A DNA stretch of 62,495 nt, the filler included, from Rhabdomonas costata (Eukaryota), in NCBI GenBank assembly GCA_019059605.1. It is 34 parts of 34 records of this genome, joined end to end, with 100 filler letters (N's around TTAATTAATTAA, not from the genome) between each part and the next. Parts side by side here need not be neighbours in the genome. Positions count along the whole stretch, not along the records: positions 25,784 to 27,525 come from JAHMHO010009770.1; 33 more parts are not named here. One strand, 5' to 3'. A program made the translations under genes and the position numbers. The notes beneath the pieces are model-generated. The model searched no databases, was not told the origin of the DNA, and worked only from the letters and a program-made list of their open reading frames with translations. This document shows positions 22,520-58,815 of the stretch, piece after piece. Position 1 is the stretch's first letter. The number at the start of each line of letters is the position of its first letter.

Positions 22520-23841
22520 GTGTTCTACTACAAAAGCTACAGACCACACACACTACGCAACACACTACGCCACATACAACAATACAAACACAGACTCCGA
22601 CTCTGAAACAGTCACAAACACAGACTTCAAGAAGACTCCGACTTCAACATCAATAGAACCAACACCAACCTCTACACCTACCACTACCGCTCCACCTACT
22701 CTAATAAAAACACCACCACCAACAACAACAACAACAACAACAACAAAACGAAGAACACACGCACACGCACACACTTAAGGAACACAGCCTCTAATACCAC
22801 CACCATACACAAATAATCCATCCACACTACAACATCCACCCACACCTTAACACAAACCAGTACCAGAACGTCAATCACACACCCAACACCGCAAAGCACT
22901 AACGCACCCAATGACACACCACCAAGCAATGAACCCAGCACAGAAAGAAATACCATGAGCCTTCGCAAAACCACAGGTTACGCACACACTCACTCCACAC
23001 TCCACACACCATTACCCAACCCCTACCTAACACCCATCGCAAGCAACCAGACCACACATACTTCCCAGCACAACAACCAAGTACACCACAAAGACCACGC
23101 ACAACCCACAGCCAGCAACCCACAGTAACACAAATGCACCCAATCACATTGCAAACTAACCAGAACCACAAACGCATACACAAAAAATCACCAACCATGC
23201 AACACCAGACAACAAAAACTTGTACACAACAACCCAGCATCAACCACAGCACAAACATTGGCCACAGCACACACACCAGAACACGAACACCCCCCAGCAC
23301 ACGCACACGCACATAACACACCATACGCACATACTACAACTGCAGACATCCCACCCATACAAATAGGAACTAGGAACAGAACACATAACACAAGCAAACT
23401 ACCCACACTAAGTGCAACGAAGCACATGCAAGTCCATGAAAACCAACCGACCATGAAACAAAGAAAAGGCCTAACGCTAACCCAAAGAAGTTCCAAGAAC
23501 CACAAACGCAGAAGCCGAGCACAGAACCAAGCCACATACCCATGACACAACGGAGCCCATACTGACCACCAAAAGCACCACAGAAGCACAATCACACACA
23601 GAATAAGGAGAAGAAGTAGCGAAAGAACCCATCAAACAACTGAAACAGCAACCCGAAGACGGAAACGCAGAACCCAAACCAAAAAAGAACACTTAGAGTC
23701 CGGAAGAGCGCAACCACCCAAGCCACTGCATAACCCACACACACCAGCGCACACACTCACGCCCACTCCCACGCCCAACCGCACACACACTCCTGACCAC
23801 ACAAACAGCCACGCAACCACGCCATCATCCTCCCACCAAAA
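22520..23841. repeat. Strongly A/C-skewed low-complexity block with (ACA)n and a Thr/Pro-rich reading stretch
   Basis: G and T are depleted on the plus strand for 1.3 kb; 22608-22750 reads TVTNTDFKKTPTSTSIEPTPTSTPTTTAPPTLIKTPPPTTTTTTTT. Confidence 0.75.
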
Positions 23842-24433: not shown

Positions 24434-25340
24434 CAGAGGTGGGCATTGGGCCGTTGTTGTACAGAATCTTGTCCATGTCGGCGATGCTGCTCTCTCCGGC
24501 GCCCTTGGGCAGAGCAGGCTGAGAAGTCCCTGAGGAGCCCCAAAAGAAGACCAAAGGCGAAGACGAAACTTGCCCGTGAAAAAATTACATAAGAGGCTCC
24601 GACTGTCTTTTTGCTTATATGTTATCCATCTTTTCTTTTTTGCGTTTACCCAATCTCTGCTGCCGTGAGCGCGTGGCAGCGCAGAGAGCGTAGCCCTACC
24701 CTCTCCTTTTTTGCGCGAGCCCGGGGGGTGCTACAGATCTGGAACACCACCGCGAGCGTGAAATCCACGCGGAGCCGAACGCACGCCGCATCTCGCGGCC
24801 CTTCACGTGCCTCGGGTTTCCCGACACACATGCCACATGCGTGATATCAACCACACCGCACGTGCATGCTCGCCTCGCATCTGTGCCTTCTTCGCCAATC
24901 CCCCAGACACCAGTCTTATGTGTGTGGGTCTTTCACCAACCGGGGCCGTGAGGTACTCCTGCTGTGCGCGGCTGTCAGTATAGTCTCCACTGACGATTTA
25001 AAAAAGGAACTGACCTCACACGGTGCTTCTCTGCTGTGCTTCCGCTGAACTTGCCTTTCTTGCGCTGCCTCACAGAAGCGTGTTCCCCGTTGCATGGCAA
25101 GTCGCGCCACTTGAGGAGGCTTTGTTTCCCCCTTGGAACCTCGCTCAGACAGCCCCTCACTCCAGAGTCGCCTTGCGGGTCAGAGGTTAGACACAAAGGG
25201 AACCCATGCACAAGGGCTAACGTACCCTCACGGGCCAGGTTGAAGATCACCGTGTTGGCGCACGAGCGACCGAAGATGACGATGTCCAGGAGGGAGTTGG
25301 CACCCAGGCGGTTCGCACCGTGCACGCTGGCACAGGCGCA
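24434..25340 (-). CDS. SDH1: Succinate dehydrogenase flavoprotein subunit, partial (exons 25340-25226, 24529-24434)
   Basis: [80 protein letters not shown] signature; phase-1 GT-AG intron. Confidence 0.95.
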
Positions 25341-25783
25341 CTGCGGGCCAAGGCAGAGACAGAGAGAGACCCCGAACAGGCAAAAGGGAGAAACAAGGCG
25401 ATCCGTGCGAGTAGCCCGAAGGTGAGTTAGAAGCAAGTGGGCTACGCTGAAAACCTTCGAAACAGAAATTGAACTTTCTGACAAAAATTCGCCTCACGTC
25501 CGAGTCCACAAATTACGTACTGGGCCGGCTATCTAGAACCTTTGACCTTGTTAGACGGGATGAGAAGGAAAAAATATGCAATTTTGGAAAAGAAAAAGGT
25601 TTCAAAAACGCCATGAAAGAAGTGCAGAAAAGAAAAGAAAAAGAGGACACGACAATTTTCGGAGGGTCGAAAACAAAAAAACANNNNNNNNNNNNNNNNN
25701 NNNNNNNNNNNNNNNNNNNNNNNNNNNTTAATTAATTAANNNNNNNNNNNNNNNNNNNNNNNNNNNNNNNNNNNNNNNNNNNN

Positions 25784-27525
25784 TGCACGGGGAGAAGACT
25801 CGGAGGGCTCGCGGGGCACCGAAGCTGAGCCCCGCCTCCCCACCACTGCGGAGGTAGGCGCTGGGGTGGACGGTGAGGTTGCTTTAGGTCCAAAGGCTTC
25901 CCCTGACCGGGAGTTGCCCACCACACGGCACAGCACATCTCCTCGGAAACTCTGCATCATGGAGACAACCTCCTCGTGGACGTCTCCTGGAATGTTGCTT
26001 TCGTGTAGGGCGGCAGAAAGAAGCTCAATAACAGCATCGAAGTGTGTGTCATTCAACCCCTGATCACGCACAAGCGTCCGGTGTGCTGCACGAAGGCTGC
26101 GTCCATCGTAACTGCTGGGGCCTCCCAGCGCCAGGGCAAAAAAGTTGCGCTGCATCTTCTGGAAGCGCGACTTCTCTACCTGGGAAAAGAAGCTTCCCAC
26201 TCGTCGATCCTCAGCAAGCTTGCCACAGTACCGCTGGACAAATGATTGAAGAGCCTGCTCCCCACCCATTCGCTGGTACAGTGTTTGGGAGCTGGGCGGG
26301 CTGGTTTCGGATGAAGATGAGCTGCCGCTGCCCTCCACTCTCAATGATGACGAGGATTCTACTGCTGGCTGTTGCGGCTTGTCAAGTACATCATCACGCA
26401 CACTTTCCGCCACTGCAATCACCTCAGAGATCACGTCCTCCGGAAAATCCGCTTCCAAGAGAGTCGACCGCAGCGATTCCATCACAGCATCGTAGTGACT
26501 GTCATTTAAGCCAAGCTCTCGCACAAGTCGGCGGTGGGCTACCCGCATGCTGCGACCATCATACTTCACTTGCCCACCGAGAGCAAAGGAAAGAAACCGG
26601 GTGAACATCCGCTTCTGATTGTTCATGTCAACTGAGGCAAAGAAATGCCGCACCCGGGGGTCGTACAGGATTCGAAAGTACAGCCGGTCCACTAGCTTCT
26701 CGACGCTGGCCTTCGCACTGACACGATCGTATAAAGTAACCTCGGTGTTGCTTGTGCCGCGGGCCTGCATAGGCTGTGCCTGAGGTGGGCTTCTCTCCAA
26801 AGACGAAACAGCTGCCGAGGGTTTCCTCTCGGATGCGGCGGCGGGCTTTGAGGTGAAACTTGCATTCCCCGTTCCAAATCTCGCACGCGCGGCTGTCGCA
26901 GGGGAAGTCGACTCTCCATTCTGCTGGCAGGCGGCCATTGGACCCGTCGAGGTCATTGCAGGCAACGCTCGCCCACCATTTGAAACCCCACAGGCGACAA
27001 AATCTCTTTCGGCGGAAATATCGCCGCCGGAGTGAACTTCGCCGCGCACCCCAGAAGAGGAGGGATCCCCTGCTGCGAGAGGAGGTGCCATTTCCCCCTC
27101 CACAGGCTTGTTCAGGATATCCCCACGCAGACTTTCCGTCAGGCCAAGAATACTTTCTATCACATTCTCAGGAAGATCCTGTTCCCGCAGCGTCGACTGC
27201 AGAGCCTCCATAACAGCGTCAAAGTGGGTGTCGTTCAGGCCCTTCTCCGTCACCAAAGCTTTGTGGGCCAAACGCATTTGTTTCATGTCATAGCTCACCT
27301 TGCCACCCAAAGCGAAGGAAAGAAACTGGGTGAACATTTTCTTCTGCTTCACCATGTCATACGCCTGAAAAAAGTGCCGCACCCGGGGGTCGTACAGGAT
27401 TCGGAAGTACATCCGGTCCACTAGCTTCTCCACGCTGACCTTTGCGCTCACCCGATCGTATAGCGTAACTTCCATCTTGCTTGCACCCTGGGCTCGAGGG
27501 GGTTGCTGCGGAACCCGTGGAGAGT
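25784..27525 (-). CDS. Multi-domain group I truncated (2/2) haemoglobin, at least 3 tandem domains, open at both contig ends
   Basis: Three copies of TLY.R..G/A...DPRV..FF...F...ALGG...YD...MR.AH..LV...GLND.H(F/Y)DAV, separated by Ser/Pro/Ala-rich linkers; no stop across the whole contig. Confidence 0.93.
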
Positions 27526-28676: not shown

Positions 28677-29485
28677 CTGAGGAAGGATGCATTCCGTTCT
28701 GATCTGCACGTAAAGGCGGTTCAGTTGCGGGTGGGTGTGCGGCTATCCTGTATGCGTTTCCGCACACCTGGTTACATTCACGGAGTTCTACCACCAGGGC
28801 GTTTTTCCATGAATTTTTGCCTCGGTTTTCCGCTGCAAATAAAAACTCTCAATGGAAAAAACAATGCTTTTTTTTTGGGTTTAAGCCTGCAGCAGTTGGG
28901 TGGCTACGGTGTCTTTGCCAAGAAACTCGGGGTCACACCCGTTGATTTCTGCCTGTGCCTGTGTGGTGGAGAAGGCCTTGCGCTTTGTCCAGAGGAGGTC
29001 TCACAGGTCACCAACAGAAGTCGTTCACATCCAACAAGCAAACACGGAGGTGCAAACACAGCAACAGCAGAACATTTTTCTTCACCCCCCTCTCCCCTTT
29101 CGACGAATGTCGCTTTGGCCGCCACACTGCGTGCATCCCTCTGAATTGTGAAATCATCTGACCGGGGGTGATCACTATGAGAGAGAGAGGCCTGCTACTG
29201 CTCTTCGCGAACGGAGACGTGGAAAACCGGTGGTCCAGTCTCTGAGCTTGTTCACTTTTGCACAGTGCATAATTTAAAATATGCAGCTGTGAACCAGCTT
29301 TAACAAAACCCCCAAACTAAGTATCCAGTGGGCCGATGCCATCGATACCCACGAGAGCATTGACACCANNNNNNNNNNNNNNNNNNNNNNNNNNNNNNNN
29401 NNNNNNNNNNNNTTAATTAATTAANNNNNNNNNNNNNNNNNNNNNNNNNNNNNNNNNNNNNNNNNNNNTTGTTGTGTGTGTGTGT

Positions 29486-31037
29486 GATGCTGGTGGGGCA
29501 GACCAAGACCGGGAAGTCGGTGTGCCACACTACTCTGAAGCGGGCCCTCACCAAGTTGGGGGTGGAGGCCACCGCCACAGCAGAGGCTGAGCAGCGTGCC
29601 AACGAGCACCCGTGGCACCAGGCCGTGACGACGTACCTCATGAATCCCAAGTCCGTGACCATGGGGGAGCTGTACGGGGAGGTCAATGAGGTCACGCGGG
29701 AATGGACCGATGGGATCCTCTCCAACATCGCGAGGAAGGCGGTGAAGAACATGAACTCTCGGGCTCGCAGCTGGCTCATCTTCGACGGGCCGGTCGATGC
29801 GCTGTGGATTGAGAATCTGGTATGCACACCCACTCATGTCCAAGCGTTATCCCTTCCGTCTGGTTTCTATAACAGCCAGACAATACCGGATGCCCGTCTT
29901 CGGGAGGTGCTTTGCGAGGTTTTGGCTTTTGTGTGCTGGGCAGGCTACATCCTCCGTGAAGAAGATAGGACATGCATCAACCAATTCGAATTATCCGCCT
30001 TTGACAAATTTGGAAAGTCTGAAAGTGTGATCACTGCAGCTTCGGAATTTTCAAGGATGAAGGCCGCTTCACATAGCGAACAAAGGCATACGGTACTTGC
30101 AACCTCACCTGACACTCCCTGAGCTCTTACCAGTGATGTTCGGTTTCTAAGTCGTGGGCTACGTGGGGTGGGGCGGGGGTCAGAACACCGTGCTGGACGA
30201 TAACAAGATGCTTTGCCTGGTGAACGGCGAGCGTATCAAGATCAGTGACACGGTCAGCTTCATGTTTGAGGTGCAGGACTTGCGGGTGGCCTCCCCTGCG
30301 ACTGTGTCGCGTTGCGGTATGGTCTTCCTGGAGCCTGACCACCTGGACGGCGGGATGCGCCCCTTGGCCACCCGAATGAACACCGCGCTGGCCCAGAGGT
30401 AAGTAACACACACAACACACATACACACATACACACGCTTCAGTGGCTTTCAGCATCCATGCCTTACCTGCTGGGCAGACACTAGCTGGTGTTTGCGACC
30501 AGAGAACTGCAACCCCTCAGGGAAAATGCTCTGCGCTCACGAAAAAAAAACACTCTCGTTGCAACTTTTTCCGATCGGGAAATGCCATCTGTCCACATCA
30601 TCGTTTGATCGTTTGGATTGGGATACAGCAACACATCCATGCACACACACACACACATACATTCCGATTCGTTTGCATTCTGCGTGCCCCAACCGTACCT
30701 ATATATTTTTAGACGTAGGAGACAGCGGGGTTTGGAATAGAGGCAGCTGTCTGTGGAAACAGGAAGGAGCACCTTTGAGCAGCGGTGGTGAGGACTCCTT
30801 CCCATCCCGGCAATCACAAACGCGTCAGGTACCCCGAGACGTGGCAGGCCGCGCGTGCCGCGGAGCTGCTGGAGCGGTTCGTGCCCAGCACCCATGAGTT
30901 CCTCCGGGCGAGCTGCCGGGAGTACATCCCCAGCAACCGCACGCAGCTGATGGAGAGTCTTCTGGTGCTGCTGGAGAGCCTTGTGAAGAACATCGAGGTC
31001 GACGATGACGACCCCGAGGGCTCGGCCCCGAAGAAAG
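29486..31037 (+). CDS. Axonemal-type dynein heavy chain, AAA2 region (exons ~29486-29819, 30184-30398, 30829-~31037)
   Basis: [12 protein letters not shown] (Walker A), [76 protein letters not shown]. Confidence 0.97.
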
Positions 31038-31789
31038 GCATGCACATAGACAAACATGCACACGGCAGTCAGAGGCAGAACCCCGTCCATCTCTTGAATG
31101 CAGATCACACGGAGGCCTGCAATTCTGTTTCTGTCCAGGCTGCTACTTTGATATCCCGTGAACTCAGCAGCAGATTCTGACCACTGCCTACACTGTGCAA
31201 CCCACAACANNNNNNNNNNNNNNNNNNNNNNNNNNNNNNNNNNNNNNNNNNNNTTAATTAATTAANNNNNNNNNNNNNNNNNNNNNNNNNNNNNNNNNNN
31301 NNNNNNNNNGGGGTGTTGTGTTCGAAGCATACCACGCCGTCCATCACAACAAGCGGAGGCAGGCAGTGCTGAATAGGAAAAGAGGGGATCAAAAACACCT
31401 CGTGACTATCACTTCAGCTGGAAAAATCATGGAGAAATCAAGAGGGTGTTTATTCGGCCTTGCTGCCTGTTGAATTACTGACTGTTGGTGACTGCTGTGA
31501 ACTGACGAGTGCGCGTGCTGTTGTCCACGGATGCTCGCGTGAGGCACCTTCAAAGCGAATGGCGCCTTGCCTGCTCCATTGCTGCCCGAGTCTGAGGCTC
31601 CTTCGTCCTTTTTGATGGGAGTGTGGCGCGTGTGCGTGTGCCTGTGGTGAGCGCAAATCTTTTCTGCGAAGTCGAGATTCTCTTCCCTCCTTGGGCTCCC
31701 CCACCTTACCTCTCCGCTCTGAGCCTCGCTGCCTAATGCCATTCCTTGTCTCGCAGGGACCCCCCTCCACACAAAACACACACACATAC

Positions 31790-41057: not shown

Positions 41058-41235
41058 AAGTTGGTAACAATCCTGCTAACCCTCCATCTGTGAGAATTTG
41101 GCTGATTGTGGCTGCTTAGAATAGGCTCCAGTTGCACTTGCTGACCGAAATCGGGAAGTCATTGAGATGTCTCCCTATCTCCTTTCGTATGGTGATGCCT
41201 TGTTCCTCTGTGTTTTCAGGAATATTGCCTTTTCA

Positions 41236-41968
41236 ATGTTTCGCCGCCTTCTCCGGCCAACCTTTGCTGTTGTAGCCGTGGGGGCGGCGCTTTCGTCCTC
41301 CTCCTCTTCTTCTTCCTCTCCCGAGTGTCTAGAGGCGGAGGAGTGCGCATTTGGTCGCCCTCTTCTGGCCCTGCAGTGGGCTCCTGCTGCTTCTGCCGTC
41401 CCTTCGCATTCCTCCGTGCGCAGACCCCTTCTTGCCTGGCTTCTCTCCAAAGGTGCCGGGTCCTTACCGCTTTCCCAGGACGAGGATGAAGAGGAAGAAG
41501 AAATCAAAGACGCTTCTGGAAGCGCGATTGAGTCACACACCGGGGGGTACTCCTCGCGGAACGTGGCCTTCTACGCCGTCGCTTCCACCGTGGGCGGGCG
41601 CAAGTACATGGAGGACGTCCACGAGCTGGTTCTCAAGGCCGCCACTCTGGATGCCGGGTGCTGCGACTGGCTCGCGGTGTTCGACGGTCATGGCGGAAGG
41701 CAATGTGCGGAGTATGCTAAGGCGCACCTACTGAAGGCCATCACCTCCTCCCAGCTCACCACCCACGGGGAGATGGTCAACGCGATTGTGAATGGGTTTG
41801 CGGAGGTGGAGTCCAAGTACTTCGAAGAGTGCGCCCACGAGCTGTACCCCAACGTAGACACGGTGGCACGGCAAAACCTGAAGCGCCACTTCCCCACTCA
41901 GACGCCGGGAAGCACCGCGCTGTGCATGCTGCTGTGCCCAAATAAACTTGTGGTGATGAACATGGGAG
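41236..41968 (+). CDS. Protein phosphatase 2C (PPM family), first coding exon with a mitochondrial-type presequence
   Basis: MFRRLLRPTFAVVAVGAAL N-terminus; motifs GGRKYMED, VFDGHGG, GSTA and VMNMG(D) ending at GGA G|gtattc. Confidence 0.92.
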
Positions 41969-42647
41969 GTATTCGATCTTTTGTGGCGCTGTGTGCAGTT
42001 GCTTGCCATTCTCTGTGTGCAGGAGAAGCCCCATTTGTGGACCGAAGGGCTGCTTTCGGTCTCGCCACACTCACTGTTGAGCTTTATCATGTGTCTGGAA
42101 CCGACCCTTCCATTCTTTCAGAATTTTATGATGGGATGAATTTATTGTGAGTATATTGGGGGAGCACTTGAAAGTGTGGTGAGATGGGGGGCGTACGCTG
42201 GCCTACAAAGTTGGCTCGTGATCGCCTACCCAACCCCCCCAAACACACCCACACNNNNNNNNNNNNNNNNNNNNNNNNNNNNNNNNNNNNNNNNNNNNTT
42301 AATTAATTAANNNNNNNNNNNNNNNNNNNNNNNNNNNNNNNNNNNNNNNNNNNNTTTGTGGGGGGACGGGGGGTTCCGGAATGTGGGAATGCGGTGGTTG
42401 TGGAAGGGCGGAATATAATTGAGCTTGGTCATTGAGGAAAGAGAGGGAAGGAAAGAGATGGTCGAATCCCGTAAAAAAAAAAGTAGGAATCAACGCAAGC
42501 AGACAAGCCACGCACACACTGAAACATATTCCCAAAAACATTGCAACGTGTTGCAGCCAAACGCTAAACGGGGTAAAAGCCATCCCACACTTTGCCCTTT
42601 GCCCTTTGCTCCCGACAAAAATGAGACGGGAGGGGAAAGCTGCATAC

Positions 42648-44195: not shown

Positions 44196-45363
44196 CCAGA
44201 GAAAGTCGAAAATGTTTTCCTCTGTTGGCACTATTCTTTATGAGCATGGCTGACTGTTTGATCATTTTGCGTTAGCTGAGCAACGGATCAACCACATTGA
44301 TGATTTATTATTTGAAACCCGCTGCCTTTCATTTTGTTAAACGTTCAAAGTGATTGAAATCAATGCGTGAAAGAAAAGCTGAAATGACGAATTTGAGTAC
44401 TGTCACAGGAAGCGTTATTTTTGCACATCGCCCCCTGCCACAGATGCAGTTCTCGCCTGATTTAGCCCAAGTTGCGCTTTTGAAGTGCAGTTCCTTGAAT
44501 CATTTACCTCCGTTTATATTTGTTGTTTTCTGTTCGAACCACAGCAAAGCACCCTTGTGCTCGTGCTGTGTGTGTATGTGCAAATGACCCCAGGCCTGGT
44601 GGGCTTGGTCCTGTTCTCATTTGTTGGAAAGTGAATTGAAGCCTTTTCCCGTTAAACGCTCTCCCCGCAGATTTAGCGATGATCTCCACGGACGATTCTT
44701 TCCGCTTCCTCCCGGACTCCTTGGAGAACTTTGCCGCAATGATCCTCCAGGTCAAAACCGCGACGGACGCCCGGATCCTCCTGAGCAGCAAGCCCTCCGA
44801 TGACAAGACGGCCCAGCTCTATGAGATTGTGCTGGGGGGCTGGCGCAACTCCAAGTCCGCCATTCGCAAGGCCAAGCAGGGCTCCAACCTGGCCTACGTG
44901 GACTCCGTGGGTGTGCTGAGCAAGGATGAGTTCCGGCTGTTCTGGGTGTGCTGGGCCCACGGACGGATCTCTGTGGGCAAGGGCGACGCTGTCGGGCAGC
45001 AGGAGTTTATGGGTTATGAGGATCCCACGGCGACCTCGGTGCGACACGTGGCCCTATCGACGGGGCGGGAGTCGAGTGGTCTTTGGCAGATGCGCGGGTT
45101 CAAGACACTAGAAGGTACTGTACTTTTTGTCTAAGCAATGAGTTTCCTGATATCAACTCCTCGGTGCTCTGAGTCAGGCTCCGGAATTTTTTGCAACCGT
45201 TAGGGTGGAAACGTCTCCTTACCTAGATATCCTATAGCATATATGCTATATATAGCATGGCTCATTAGGCCGATGGCTCCGTTCTTATTTTCCAGAAAAA
45301 GTCGAAAATGTTTTCCTCTCTTGGCACTTGTCTTTATGAGCATGGCTGACTGCTTGAACATTT
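44196..45363 (+). repeat. ~70-bp diverged direct repeats (44196-~44267 and 45292-45363) flanking the FAMeT exon
   Basis: ccaga(g/a)aaagtcgaaaatgttttcctct(g/c)ttggcact..tctttatgagcatggctgactg.ttga.cattt, spacing 1096 bp. Confidence 0.92.
44671..45114 (+). CDS. Farnesoic-acid O-methyltransferase-like (Methyltransf_FA) domain encoded on a single exon
   Basis: VKTATDARILLS..YEIVLGGWRNSKSAIRK...VLSKDEFRLFWVCW..GRISVGKG..FMGYEDP...VALSTG..SGLW; ccgcag|AT ... GAA G|gtactg, 444 nt. Confidence 0.9.
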
Positions 45364-51197: not shown

Positions 51198-51565
51198 GTC
51201 AGCGAAGAATAGCCAAGGGGAAGGAGTGGTCCTGGCTTCTGAAAGACAGTCCTTCCTCAGCAGCGTTGCGCAAACCTCGAATTTTCAAGTTCAATTCATT
51301 GTTGCATACGTTTGAATATTCAGAGATCAGGTCAACGTCAGCCAAGAATTTAGAACAGTTCATTTTAACAAAGTTCAAAGAAAAAGCAACTGTCCACATT
51401 GTATGTGAGTGTTTAGGTGGGTGTGGGTGGGTGTGCAGAACAAGCAGCACAAGGACACGNNNNNNNNNNNNNNNNNNNNNNNNNNNNNNNNNNNNNNNNN
51501 NNNTTAATTAATTAANNNNNNNNNNNNNNNNNNNNNNNNNNNNNNNNNNNNNNNNNNNNGTGGGG

Positions 51566-51718
51566 GTTGCCCAGGAGGTCCTCCCGGACGATCACAATGG
51601 TCACCCCAGCCGGCCCGTGGACGTGTCGAAGTACGGAGTGATCTACGCCGGGGCGCAGAAGAACGCCGGGCCGGCTGGGGTGACCATTGTGATCGTCCGG
51701 GAGGACCTCCTGGGCAAC
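51566..51718. repeat. Perfect 52-bp fold-back inverted repeat at contig start (arms 51566-51617 and 51667-51718)
   Basis: The left arm is the reverse complement of downstream PSAT coding sequence. Confidence 0.95.
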
Positions 51719-53109
51719 TCCCTGCCCTGCACCCCACTTATGCTGGACTGGAAGGTGCGGCTGTCTCTTTCTCTCTTTCTCTCTTCTCTCTTTGAGAAGC
51801 TACTTTGGTGGAAAATAAAACGGAAGGAAAAAGAAAAAAAGAAGAAGAAATGTGAATTCTCCATTTACTCTTTGTTCGTGTGGGCCCAACCTTGCGTGCT
51901 TGAATTCCTGTCGATCTGGATGTATTCCTTCGCGGGTACGCTTGTGCCTGATTTGAGATTCGACGTGAGAACAGCACCTGAGGAGTACCTTGCAGGTTCA
52001 CAAATGTCGAATTCGAAAGCCCGAATTACTTTGGGTGTCATTCATGGGTGTCACTCACTCATTTGTTATACTGCTGGATGAGATTGCCAAGCAAGGTTTT
52101 TTTTTGAAGAAACGCCCTGCTTTGCATGTGTTGTTGTGTTTTTTTTTGTGCTCATCAATTTTTTTTTTTTGCAATTTGGTCAGCTCAACGCGGACAACCA
52201 GTCCCTATACAACACTCCCCCGTGCTTCTCGATCTACGTCTGCGGGCTGGTGTTCGAGTGGATTCTCAACGAGGTACGTTTTAATGCAGTCATGTGAAGC
52301 ACCTTTTCGCCTTGTGGCGTTGTTGCCCAGGGGTTGGCAATTGCATCCCCCTCGCAAAAACCGTGGTCGAAATATCTTCCTAACCCAACACAGGTGCACC
52401 CCGCGTGCACTTTGAACTGCTTCACGTTTGAATTTATGACGGCCGCATGCTGATCTGCGAGATGTGGGGTGGGGGTTCAGGTGGGAGGTTTGGAGAAGAT
52501 GGAGCAGCTGAACATCGCCAAGGCGAACAAGTTGTACTCCATGATGGACAAGTCGGGGGGGTTCTACCACGCCGTGGTGGAGCCCGCTTTCCGCTCCCGC
52601 ATGAACGTCCCCTTCCGCATTAAGGGGTACGCAAACAACTTACAATTTGGGAGTGGTGCATCGTGGATTGCACTGGAGAATTTATTGATAAAAAGGCGGG
52701 ATGACAACATTAGCTTCAGTGGAGTTTTGCCAGGCAGCTCGTCTGCAGACTTTTGAGAGTGCCGGAGACAGACGTCTTGGATAGTCGAGGCTAGCAATCT
52801 ATTCCACTAATTTTTCAGCTTCTTTCTGGCCTCCCGGTGTGTTTATGTTCGTTTAGGGGCGACGCCAAGCTGGAGAAGGAGTTCATCTCGGAGTCTGTGA
52901 AGGCCGGGCTGCTGGAGCTGAAGGGCCACCGCTCCGTGGGCGGGCTTCGCGCGTCGATCTACAACGCCATGCCCATCGAGGGAGTCGAGGCGCTGTGCAA
53001 CTTCATGGCCTCGTTCATGCAGAAGCACACCCAAAGTGTACCTTCGCGTCCTCTGTTCATCCCACCTGTTCTCCTTGAATCCCGTAACTGTGAACAACTC
53101 TTGTGCTAA
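51608..53109 (+). CDS. PSAT1: Phosphoserine aminotransferase, C-terminal half (exons ~51608-51754, 52184-52273, 52481-52626, 52857-53109)
   Basis: [26 protein letters not shown] (PLP lysine), [39 protein letters not shown]. Confidence 0.97.
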
Positions 53110-56095: not shown

Positions 56096-58047
56096 GTGTG
56101 GTTTCGGCAGATCGGGTAGAAGGGCATGCTAAAAGGAAAGAAACGTGTGACGGAAAGGGGAGGGGGGTGAACGAGCCGCCGTGGGAATATTCCCGATTCT
56201 CAAAAGAGAACCCACTGGTGGTAGCGGTGCTCAGTCATTGCTGTGAATCTGGTCCGTCCGCCCCCACAGGGTGGTGGCGGTGAAGAGTTTGGACATTTTT
56301 TTTGGGGGGGGGGACGGTATTGCCGTAACCCGGTTGTACGGTACTTGAAAAAAGGATTTCTGGGGTTTGTTTTTGGCTGCAACGCACTGGCACCCCGTTT
56401 TTGCTGCTGTTGTTCCTGGTTATTCCAACTGGTACCTAGTTGCAGTGACACTTTACTCCACAGTGGGGGCAGCACCGTCTGCCCGCAATGTCTCTTTCCG
56501 CTCCCCCAAAAACCGGGGGGGAGGGGGCGGGGAGGGGTAGCAAAGTGAACTGGAAGTGCAGGCAAAAACCCTGGCAGATAAACGCCCGGGGACAGCACCG
56601 TCTCCTCACCCGCGAAAGCAGGGAGGGAAGAGGTAGCCATGCTCCTGTTGCCGCGCCACAGCCCCCGCAGAGCCACAGCGACCTTTGCCAGTCTGGAAAT
56701 TTTATTCTTTGACTTAATAACAGTTCTCAAGCTGCTCTCACTGTCGCCGGAGAAACGGTTCGCGTAGCAGGAGATCAGCTGCACGATGAATCGCTGTGGG
56801 AGGCAAATATGAATTTTAATAAACCCTTCCCGTTTATTATTTGTACCCCCCACAACTAATTATAACCCCCACACACACCTTGCTTCAAAATGACATTCCC
56901 ATTTTAGCGGAACCTGGCAAAGTATGCCTAACCTCCTGCTTCTGGAATAACATGTCCAGGGGGATCACCCCTCCCCCACNNNNNNNNNNNNNNNNNNNNN
57001 NNNNNNNNNNNNNNNNNNNNNNNTTAATTAATTAANNNNNNNNNNNNNNNNNNNNNNNNNNNNNNNNNNNNNNNNNNNNGGGGTGTTTTGTACGAAGCCC
57101 ACAGGAATGCCCGTTATTTTTGAAGATGCCCAGGGTTGCGACAAACAATTTGGACGATTTGTGACTCTTTACGCGATGCTGGCGTCATCTAAGATAGCAT
57201 CGTGCTGGGCATCGAGATAAAATAGTCCGTTATTGGTTCGAAGAGAAGAGCCAAAAATGAGGGCTGGTTCCGCGCTTATAACAAAAAAAACACGTGAAAA
57301 ATAGCGCCCAGTTTGCCCTCGCTTCTTGGCGTCGTCGGATATTCTTGCAGGCTATTTTGATGAACAGCCATATGATTTACACTTTCGGCGCAAATTAGCA
57401 CAAAGAATGGCCATTTTGACCCGAATTTGTCTCGTTCTTGTCAATACAGCCAACTCTGATGATGGTCTGGTCGTGGAGGTGGAGGGCAACTGAAAACCAT
57501 GTTTGCTATTTATAAAAAATGCTGACAGGTTAGGTTTGCCTGGGAATTTAGGTCGTCCCGTCAGCTATCGTCGGGAGAGTTCTTATGGGGTTGGGTCCCT
57601 TCTTCCTCACTTCCTCACGGGGATTAACCGAAAATCACCACAAGCTCTCCACCGTTCAACAAACAATAGTCTCAAGGCGAGCGACAAGGGCAGTGCAAGC
57701 ACATCACCATGAGTGTCACCCAAGGTAGGACTAAGATGTTTTACTGTTACAAACAAAATGCAAACAATGTACACGGCAACGGTGGGCACAACTTTTAACA
57801 GGGATGAAAACGGCCTCTCAGCCTCTAAGCCTATGCCTTCGGTTGCTGCGGTGACCATTTGGCTCTGCGAAGCACCGGGGGCGCGACACAGTCGTCAGAG
57901 AGAAGCACATACCGAATGTCACAGACATTGTAATTGTACCCGATGCTCATCCGCAGGCATGTCAACGAGAGAAACACGGAACTACATTTAGTAATGTCAC
58001 CGAACGAGTTAAAAGAATCAGCGAGACTTCTGTGGCATAGGTCATAC

Positions 58048-58815
58048 AATCCCGTTTCGAGGCTCCACACCTTAATGGTGTTGTCCCCACTGCCGCTGAC
58101 AACGAACTTTCCATCGGATGTTGCGGTCAAGGCACTGACAAAATCAGTGTGCCCCTCCAGAGTGCGCTCCTCCTCACCGGTATCGAGATTCCACACCTTG
58201 ATGGTGTTGTCGTAACTGCCACTGAAGATGTGCTTCCCATCTGACGTCACGGCAGTGGCGATTACGGATGCGCCATGACCCTCAAGAGAGCGCACTGCTT
58301 TTCCAGTCTCGAGGTTCCACACCTTAATAGTGTTATCCTTACTGCCGCTGACAATGTGCTGCGCGTCCAGGGTTACGGCAACGGCAAATACGGAACCAGC
58401 ATGGCCCTTAAGGGTGCGCACCTCCTCCCAGGAATCGAGACTCCACACCTTCACAGTACTGTCCCCACTGCCGCTGACAATGTACTTCCCATTCGAAGTT
58501 ACAGCAACCGCAAAGACGGAACCAGTATGTCCTGTAAAACTGTGCTCCTGGTTTCCTGTACGGTAGTTCCAAATCCTGATGGTATTGTCGTCACTTCCAC
58601 TGACAATGTGGACGCCATCCGGAGTGACAGCCACCCCGCTGACAAATTTCGTGTGTCCCTCAAGGGTGCGCTCCTCCATGCCGGTGTTTAGGTTCCAAAC
58701 CTTGATAGTGGTGTCCTTGCTGCCACTGACAACGTGCTTCCCGTCTGGCGTCACCGTCACCGCCCTGACGTAACCACTGTGGCCTGCAAGTGTGCGCTCT
58801 TCCTTCCCAACAAAC
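58048..58815 (-). CDS. Protein with six near-regular 42-aa WD40 repeats, partial; probable donor at 58047
   Basis: GH...V.AVAVT.DG.HIVSGS.DNTIKVWNL.TG.E.RTLE repeated at 126-nt spacing; open to the contig end. Confidence 0.95.

Follow-up and report, generated by a model that had tools for sequence, protein, structure and literature searches.

Does the 62,495-base window analysed here, that is, the whole stretch of DNA shown above in part, hold a gene that strings several haem globins together in one polypeptide, and if so, to which globin family do the units belong and what might the chain do? The question is raised by one contig of the window, at positions 25784-27525 (1742 bp), for which an earlier sequence-only reading had proposed three truncated haemoglobin domains in a single minus-strand frame. 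The window consists of about 34 separate, unrelated contigs of 1736-1744 bp, which are connected by spacers of the form N44-TTAATTAATTAA-N44. The adjacency of features on different contigs therefore has no positional meaning, and the contrast that had been drawn between the intronless globin frame and the short exons of its neighbours is not meaningful, because these neighbours are unrelated contigs. The proposed frame itself was clearly recovered. It occupies minus-strand positions 27523 to 25784, comprises 580 codons, and is free of stop codons at both ends of the contig; three of its stretches match the Pfam family Bac_globin. It is near certain that this contig carries part of a gene for a multi-unit truncated haemoglobin (trHb) of group I (N-type, T1). 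According to the wider reading, which we consider probable but well short of assured, the fragment belongs to a eukaryotic nuclear gene, probably of a euglenozoan, and encodes a multi-unit group I trHb with disordered linkers that would carry out O2 and nitric oxide (NO) chemistry. For the NO/O2 role taken by itself, which is proposed by analogy with better-known globins, the chances are about even.

Assignment to the globin family was straightforward. The hidden Markov model (HMM) of Bac_globin (PF01152), which the sequence-only reading had named as a check, matched the translated frame in three stretches with an E-value of 2.2e-39 and a score of 134.8 bits, against a cutoff of 21. None of the non-globin Pfam families reported for the 580 residues had a matched stretch that passed on its own. 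A unit HMM, which was built in this analysis from 21 single-domain matches, placed full globin units at residues 14-140, 257-383, and 408-534; the domain ranges given earlier coincide with these placements after an offset for the first Met, which is residue 17 of the frame. With boundaries set slightly more tightly, unit 1 comprises residues 17-139 (27107-27475, minus strand), unit 2 residues 260-382 (26378-26746, minus strand), and unit 3 residues 411-533 (25925-26293, minus strand). A multi-unit truncated haemoglobin is understood here as a protein for which one unbroken frame encodes at least two complete trHb units, and the fragment contains three full units within 580 codons. A tblastn search of the window revealed no further globin piece outside the contig at 25784-27525.

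The sequence comparison with solved structures gave 26 matches in the Protein Data Bank (PDB), headed by group I entries. The top sequence relatives were all group I truncated haemoglobins; they comprised GlbN of Synechocystis/Synechococcus (E 1.5e-29), Chlamydomonas THB1, M. tuberculosis HbN, and the globins of Paramecium, Tetrahymena, and C. eugametos. The whole chain was modelled with AlphaFold2 on the basis of a 33-protein alignment of multi-unit relatives. The model showed three helical units with the same helix pattern, in which ten-residue blocks reached predicted local distance difference test (pLDDT) values of 88-98, and 297 residues had values of at least 90. Residues 145-152, 155-258, 393-410, and 536-577 had values below 50. 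The predicted template modelling (pTM) score of the whole chain was 0.36; thus, no fixed packing between the units is predicted. Unit 3, the most divergent of the three, was additionally modelled alone with 41 single-domain relatives and gave a pLDDT of 95.1 and a pTM of 0.87. A Foldseek search of the PDB with this model returned group I globins at ranks 1-31, with target-normalised template modelling (TM) scores of 0.72-0.94, and globins of groups II and III from rank 32 downwards only. The top-listed THB1, Tetrahymena, C. eugametos, and HbN entries scored 0.86-0.94. The fold search covered the unit 3 model, and the fold of units 1 and 2 was judged from the whole-chain model, in which their blocks had pLDDT values of 88-97. 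The earlier assignment to group I is thus sustained both by the GlbN-led sequence matches and by the group I-led fold search.

The haem pocket was inspected residue by residue, with positions mapped through alignments of the units to GlbN and the F8 label taken from the alignment to GlbN His70. The helix position labels agree with the GlbN residue numbers. As the sequence-only reading had stated, the proximal His F8 is retained in all three units, namely, as His87 (27263-27265), His330 (26534-26536), and His481 (26081-26083). These three residues occupy three of the four invariant columns in the 33-protein alignment, and His F8 is kept in 368 of the 383 units found in relatives with three or more units. 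Phe at CD1, Phe at E14, and Met at E10 are likewise common to all three units. The remaining ligand-pocket positions divide the chain. Units 1 and 2 carry Tyr B10, Gln E7, and Phe E11, with Met (unit 1) or Leu (unit 2) at B9; unit 3 has Tyr at B9, Cys at B10, Phe at E7, and Gln at E11. The Phe E11 of units 1 and 2 is shared with 12 other aligned units, and, across the entire alignment, Cys B10 recurs in just two further units. Gly-Gly hinges at AB and EF are a hallmark of group I. The EF hinge is present in all three units, and unit 3 possesses both hinges. Judged from these residues, the three units are not equivalent, which predicts that ligand affinity or redox behaviour would differ along the chain.

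The units are separated by linkers of quite different composition. Ser, Pro, Ala, Gly, and Thr make up 59-67% of the linker residues versus 26% of those in the units. Linker 1 spans residues 140-259 (26747-27106, minus strand); its core, residues 141-256, is 116 residues long with 59% Ser/Pro/Ala/Gly/Thr, and pLDDT is below 50 over residues 155-258. Linker 2 (residues 383-410; 26294-26377, minus strand) is Ser-rich and modelled as unstructured, with a length of 24 residues when counted in the same way. Linkers of relatives with three or more units are mostly short: 262 of 317 have 15 residues or fewer, the median is 8, and just 10 exceed 110 residues. Linker 1 was also considered as a decayed fourth globin. 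This candidate was rejected, as the unit HMM matched none of the linkers, even at an E-value threshold of 100 with filters switched off.

Unequal pockets on flexible linkers would also suit a deliberately heterogeneous haem array. In such an array, units 1 and 2 would serve O2/NO chemistry, unit 3 would be a site under thiol or redox gating, or a regulatory one, and the linkers would allow contact among the units or with a reductase that they share. If polyglobins like this one are ancestral to Euglenozoa, here the diplonemids and the source organism of the fragment, they may constitute a major NO/O2-handling system of very abundant marine protists. We consider this design, with what would follow from it, unlikely. 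The reading that we prefer, a multi-unit group I trHb with several sites for O2/NO chemistry, was next placed among its relatives.

HMMER was run exhaustively against 1.84 billion cluster representatives and yielded 3071 matches with E-values of 0.001 or below, 48 of them at 1e-30 or below. Among the best 150 representatives, 89 had two or more full units, 54 had three or more, and 18 had five or more. Long chains were found in the diplonemids Rhynchopus euleeides (EP01061_P003655; 1148 aa, 8 units) and Lacrimia lanifica (EP01063_P030903; 1882 aa, 12 units), in Tetrahymena thermophila (XP_001030649.2; 1137 aa, 7 units after an AhpC-TSA peroxiredoxin domain), in the volvocine alga Astrephomene gubernaculifera (640 aa, 5 units), and in Perkinsus olseni (KAF4665176.1 and KAF4723286.1; 2375 and 1987 aa, 16 and 14 units). 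Contigs of 0.3-1 Mb in the European Nucleotide Archive (ENA) encode proteins of up to 1923 aa with up to 14 units. In the polyglobins of two of these contigs (1 Mb and 756 kb), six to eight near-identical units are spaced by 2 residues, which suggests, as far as sequences can tell, very recent amplification or concerted evolution inside the gene. Putative three-unit proteins of about 400 residues were also detected in gammaproteobacterial metagenome-assembled genomes (MAGs) assigned to Chromatiaceae, Ectothiorhodospiraceae, and Candidatus Tenderia. A match of approximately 1.2 kb was present in eight (L025-L032) of the 80 loci that were retained. MAGs related to these three-unit carriers harbour two-unit and one-unit forms.

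The fragment itself has no close counterpart in these collections. Its exact sequence is absent from a collection of 15 billion proteins, and no identical or near-identical protein was found in the databases searched, the best match being 45% identical. A metagenome scan returned 24 loci whose best segments were 36-49% identical to the fragment, none of which extends the gene, and a protein atlas gave sub-threshold leads only (0.85, to a globin cluster rich in Perkinsozoa).

Multi-unit truncated haemoglobins (‘MU-trHb’) were reportedly described in silico by Hade, Kaur, Chakraborti, and Dikshit in 2017 (IUBMB Life 69:479). That study is cited in two publications that were available in part. 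In the accessible sections of the first, a review of 2020, multi-unit T globins are presented as in silico findings and eukaryotes are said to hold T1 multi-unit sequences (PMC7475203, citing Hade et al., 2017); the second mentions several 2/2Hb domains on one polypeptide (PMC7082302, citing the same work). As the accessible sections of PMC7475203 list bacterial multi-unit forms for groups II and III only, the bacterial group I triplets may be undescribed. In the literature searched, we found no description of euglenozoan (Euglena, diplonemid) or Perkinsus polyglobins and no biochemical study of any multi-unit truncated haemoglobin; papers beyond the searched library may exist. The sequence-only reading had regarded the architecture as possibly undescribed. 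With chains of at least three trHb1 units in 54 of the 150 best representatives, and with multi-unit forms described in silico, this view has to be given up. The same reading had envisaged that such proteins might prove both common and characterised; they are indeed numerous, but biochemically characterised ones did not appear in the literature searched. On the sequences compared, the architecture is not new, and the fragment is a variant with long linkers, unequal pockets, and a lost hinge.

Long and disordered linkers would equally be found in a polyprotein precursor, which is translated as one chain and afterwards cleaved within the linkers to release single-domain globins. Euglenids and dinoflagellates cut some of their plastid proteins from polyproteins, and the hints of a euglenozoan host discussed below are compatible with such a scheme. 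The stretch just before unit 1 resembles that just before unit 2, as a shared processing site would, and several relatives, such as those on the 1-Mb and 756-kb ENA contigs, consist of near-identical repeated units. However, the two linkers differ in sequence as well as in length (116 versus 24 residues), and no motif is shared with the region before unit 3. Furthermore, the linkers of the relatives, with the short lengths given above, leave little space for a processing site. We therefore regard a polyprotein as an unlikely source of the single-frame arrangement and retain a chain that stays joined.

Both ends of the fragment bear on what the complete gene might encode. The tail after unit 3 (residues 534-580; 25784-25924, minus strand) is rich in Ser, Pro, and Ala, contains 67% Ser/Pro/Ala/Gly/Thr, and reaches the contig end without a stop codon. 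Since its last 46 residues are linker-like and a stop codon is missing, the gene continues in the 3′ direction. At the 5′ end, 16 in-frame, Pro/Gln-rich codons precede the first Met (27476-27523, minus strand). These codons can be aligned to the end of the linker between units 1 and 2, a resemblance already pointed out from the sequence; 50 nt align with an in-frame 6-nt insertion or deletion. The identity is modest, at about 26 of 44 aligned bases as counted from the printed alignment, and it is not decisive, because the synonymous divergence (dS) between the units is near 1. The ATG at 27475 (27475-27473) is flanked by an A at −3 and a G at +4, resembling a Kozak context, and starts unit 1 where single-domain globins begin. 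It could be the true start, with the upstream codons belonging to the 5′ untranslated region. It is also possible that the 16 codons are a linker from a further upstream unit; such a unit is not shown by them, because sixteen open codons are no evidence either way.

The open 3′ end would accommodate an output domain, in which case the globin units would be the input part of a sensor for gas or redox state, a function that the sequence-only reading had entertained. Some relatives do carry other domains, and certain single-unit matches are combined with PAS/MCP or cytochrome domains. A Pfam scan of 16 long relatives, each with at least two units, found MCPsignal in two, ankyrin repeats in one, and UEV/Vps23 in one, and the Tetrahymena chain has its peroxiredoxin. 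The other 12 of the 16 showed globin families only, so that a gas sensor finds little support, and both MCPsignal relatives have just two full units. Moreover, the tail after unit 3 is linker-like, and Pfam detected no signalling output domain, which a globin-coupled sensor would possess, within the available 580 residues. A sensor is thus rather improbable, and we return to a chain built of globin units.

How these units arose can be read in part from their divergence. Between units 1 and 2, identity amounts to 68% at the protein level and 70% at the DNA level, and the two align in register at a spacing of 729 nt. The nonsynonymous divergence (dN) is 0.26 and dS is 0.99, resulting in a dN/dS ratio of 0.26. 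The pair goes back to an old duplication, and purifying selection has acted on both copies. Unit 3 shares 39-42% identity with the other two units and is saturated at synonymous sites. A per-domain phylogeny, as suggested earlier, was calculated as a quick tree of 134 units and 127 columns with SH-aLRT (Shimodaira-Hasegawa-like approximate likelihood ratio test) support, in which 56 of 129 forks were unresolved. Units 1 and 2 appeared as sisters with a support of 100, and unit 3 was left unplaced. The units of the relatives mostly grouped by lineage, a pattern that would fit repeated lineage-specific amplification. The value of dS near 1, together with the 70% DNA identity, argues against the collapse of recent paralogues. 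That the contig is a chimeric join of paralogues or stems from a contaminating organism is very improbable: although it is just 1742 bp long, comes from a very fragmented assembly, and has no near-identical database protein, a single frame passes through all junctions, the divergence between units 1 and 2 is too large for repeat collapse, the architecture recurs in many independent genomes and transcriptomes, the GC content at third codon positions (GC3) is at the bottom end of the values for other coding pieces of the window, and two contigs independently point to Euglenozoa.

With respect to the host, GC3 of the globin frame is 0.61, compared with 0.62-0.87 for six other coding pieces. The contig at 29469-31209 contains exons of an axonemal dynein heavy chain on the plus strand (29469-30119 and 30779-31177), covering the AAA region and the AAA-lid. 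The best solved match of the dynein exon was PDB entry 9y6s with an E-value of 2.9e-30, versus at least 1.2e-23 for animal and other entries not named ‘putative’. A second match, 9e5c, carries the ‘putative’ naming as well and is presumably from Trypanosoma brucei. The code 9y6s occurs in a preprint on the axoneme of Leishmania tarentolae. Taken together with the GC3 value and the diplonemid relatives, these matches are suggestive of a euglenozoan host. Two further contigs contain short exons: an SDHA exon with a 33-residue match (24978-25493, minus strand) and a class-V aminotransferase-like exon with a 44-residue match (51560-51760, plus strand). These short exons suggest an intron-bearing eukaryote. 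A dinoflagellate spliced-leader motif had no match in the window with up to three mismatches.

Several observations weigh against the wider reading. Linker 1, with its 116 residues, might conceivably be an intron that is retained in frame; the open frame across it is weak evidence on this point, because another frame has only one stop there. Unit 3 lacks Tyr B10, with Cys in its place and a Tyr at B9, whereas 286 of the 383 units from proteins with at least three units have Tyr B10, as do 65 of 68 single units. With this residue replaced by a rare Cys, ordinary group I chemistry of unit 3 is not assured. In units 1 and 2, Ser-Ala stands in place of the Gly-Gly hinge at AB, so that the AB hinge is confined to unit 3; it is present in 339 of 383 units of the three-or-more-unit proteins and in 62 of 68 single units. 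The euglenozoan hint consists of one other contig and of 31-35% identities. Finally, the NO/O2 role is carried over through knowledge of the family, since it derives from single-domain relatives.

HbN, THB1, and other single-domain globins of group I are known for NO dioxygenation and for the handling of O2 and NO. By analogy, each unit of the fragment would bind one haem b via His F8 and work independently. Disorder in the linkers and the low pTM speak for such independence, and the gene product might be pictured as beads on a string, one polypeptide offering several haem sites for O2/NO chemistry. This chemistry would be NO dioxygenation, or buffering or scavenging of NO and O2, as in the single-domain group I relatives, and the chain would depend on a separate reductase.

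Other contigs of the window contained features outside the globin gene. A PP2C phosphatase fragment lies at 41125-42147 on the plus strand. A WD40 repeat frame of 327 uninterrupted residues (57834-58814, minus strand) shows six WD40 stretches and a DNA period of 126 nt and reaches the contig end. An ORF on the plus strand (44640-45131) encodes a Methyltransf_FA (farnesoic acid O-methyltransferase-like) domain with an E-value of 1.9e-31, and a search for homologues of near-equal length gave one weak match of 32% identity. The plus strand of the contig at 22099-23841 consists almost entirely of A and C, seen in detail at 22700-23500, with a GC skew of −0.33 to −0.41 and an AT skew of up to +0.65; it is not a simple tandem repeat, and low-complexity DNA or an artefact are candidates for its origin. 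Rfam gave no match in the window at gathering thresholds.

Multi-unit truncated haemoglobins are widespread, yet in the literature searched they are represented by sequences only. The class raises the question of why cells join up to 16 haem globins in one chain. The fragment adds one lineage and an unusual variant, and by itself it changes little.

Compared with known systems, the units of the fragment share fold and family with the single-domain proteins GlbN, THB1, Tetrahymena trHb, and HbN, which have one unit per chain. A bis-His coordination of the GlbN type is not expected, because the units of the fragment have Met at E10, where GlbN has His. Invertebrate multi-domain globins, as portrayed in the accessible part of PMC4503718, have likewise arisen by tandem globin duplication into one chain. 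They belong to the 3-on-3 (3/3) fold class, are of animal origin, and are often extracellular; the likeness is an analogy only and no architectural homology. The MU-trHb proteins (Hade et al., 2017), as far as they are described in the accessible sections of the publications citing them, resemble the fragment in having tandem 2/2 globin units on one polypeptide.

Within the multi-unit class, the fragment stands apart by its disordered linkers, which are 116 and 24 residues long where the median for the relatives is 8, and by units that are unlike each other. The Tetrahymena thermophila protein XP_001030649.2, named a ‘protozoan/cyanobacterial globin family protein’, also combines T1 units, seven in number, in one chain, but it is only 26% identical to the fragment and begins with an AhpC-TSA domain, which is absent from the available 580 residues of the fragment. 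This fusion of a peroxiredoxin to seven globin units is an indication that at least one polyglobin takes part in peroxide or redox chemistry. The T1 polyglobins of Perkinsus olseni are very long and include one gap of 120 residues. They differ from the fragment in that their cluster representative is about 30% identical to it and their units are of two alternating types, which occupy a separate part of the tree. The diplonemid polyglobins are 31-35% identical to the fragment, most of their units are 0-3 residues apart, and in the quick tree, the units of the fragment do not pair with particular diplonemid units. The best full-length matches of the fragment are nevertheless the diplonemid proteins of Lacrimia lanifica (E 2.4e-235) and Rhynchopus euleeides (E 2.8e-138), both of which are built of T1 units like those described here and contain one long internal gap each, of 229 and 80 residues, respectively.

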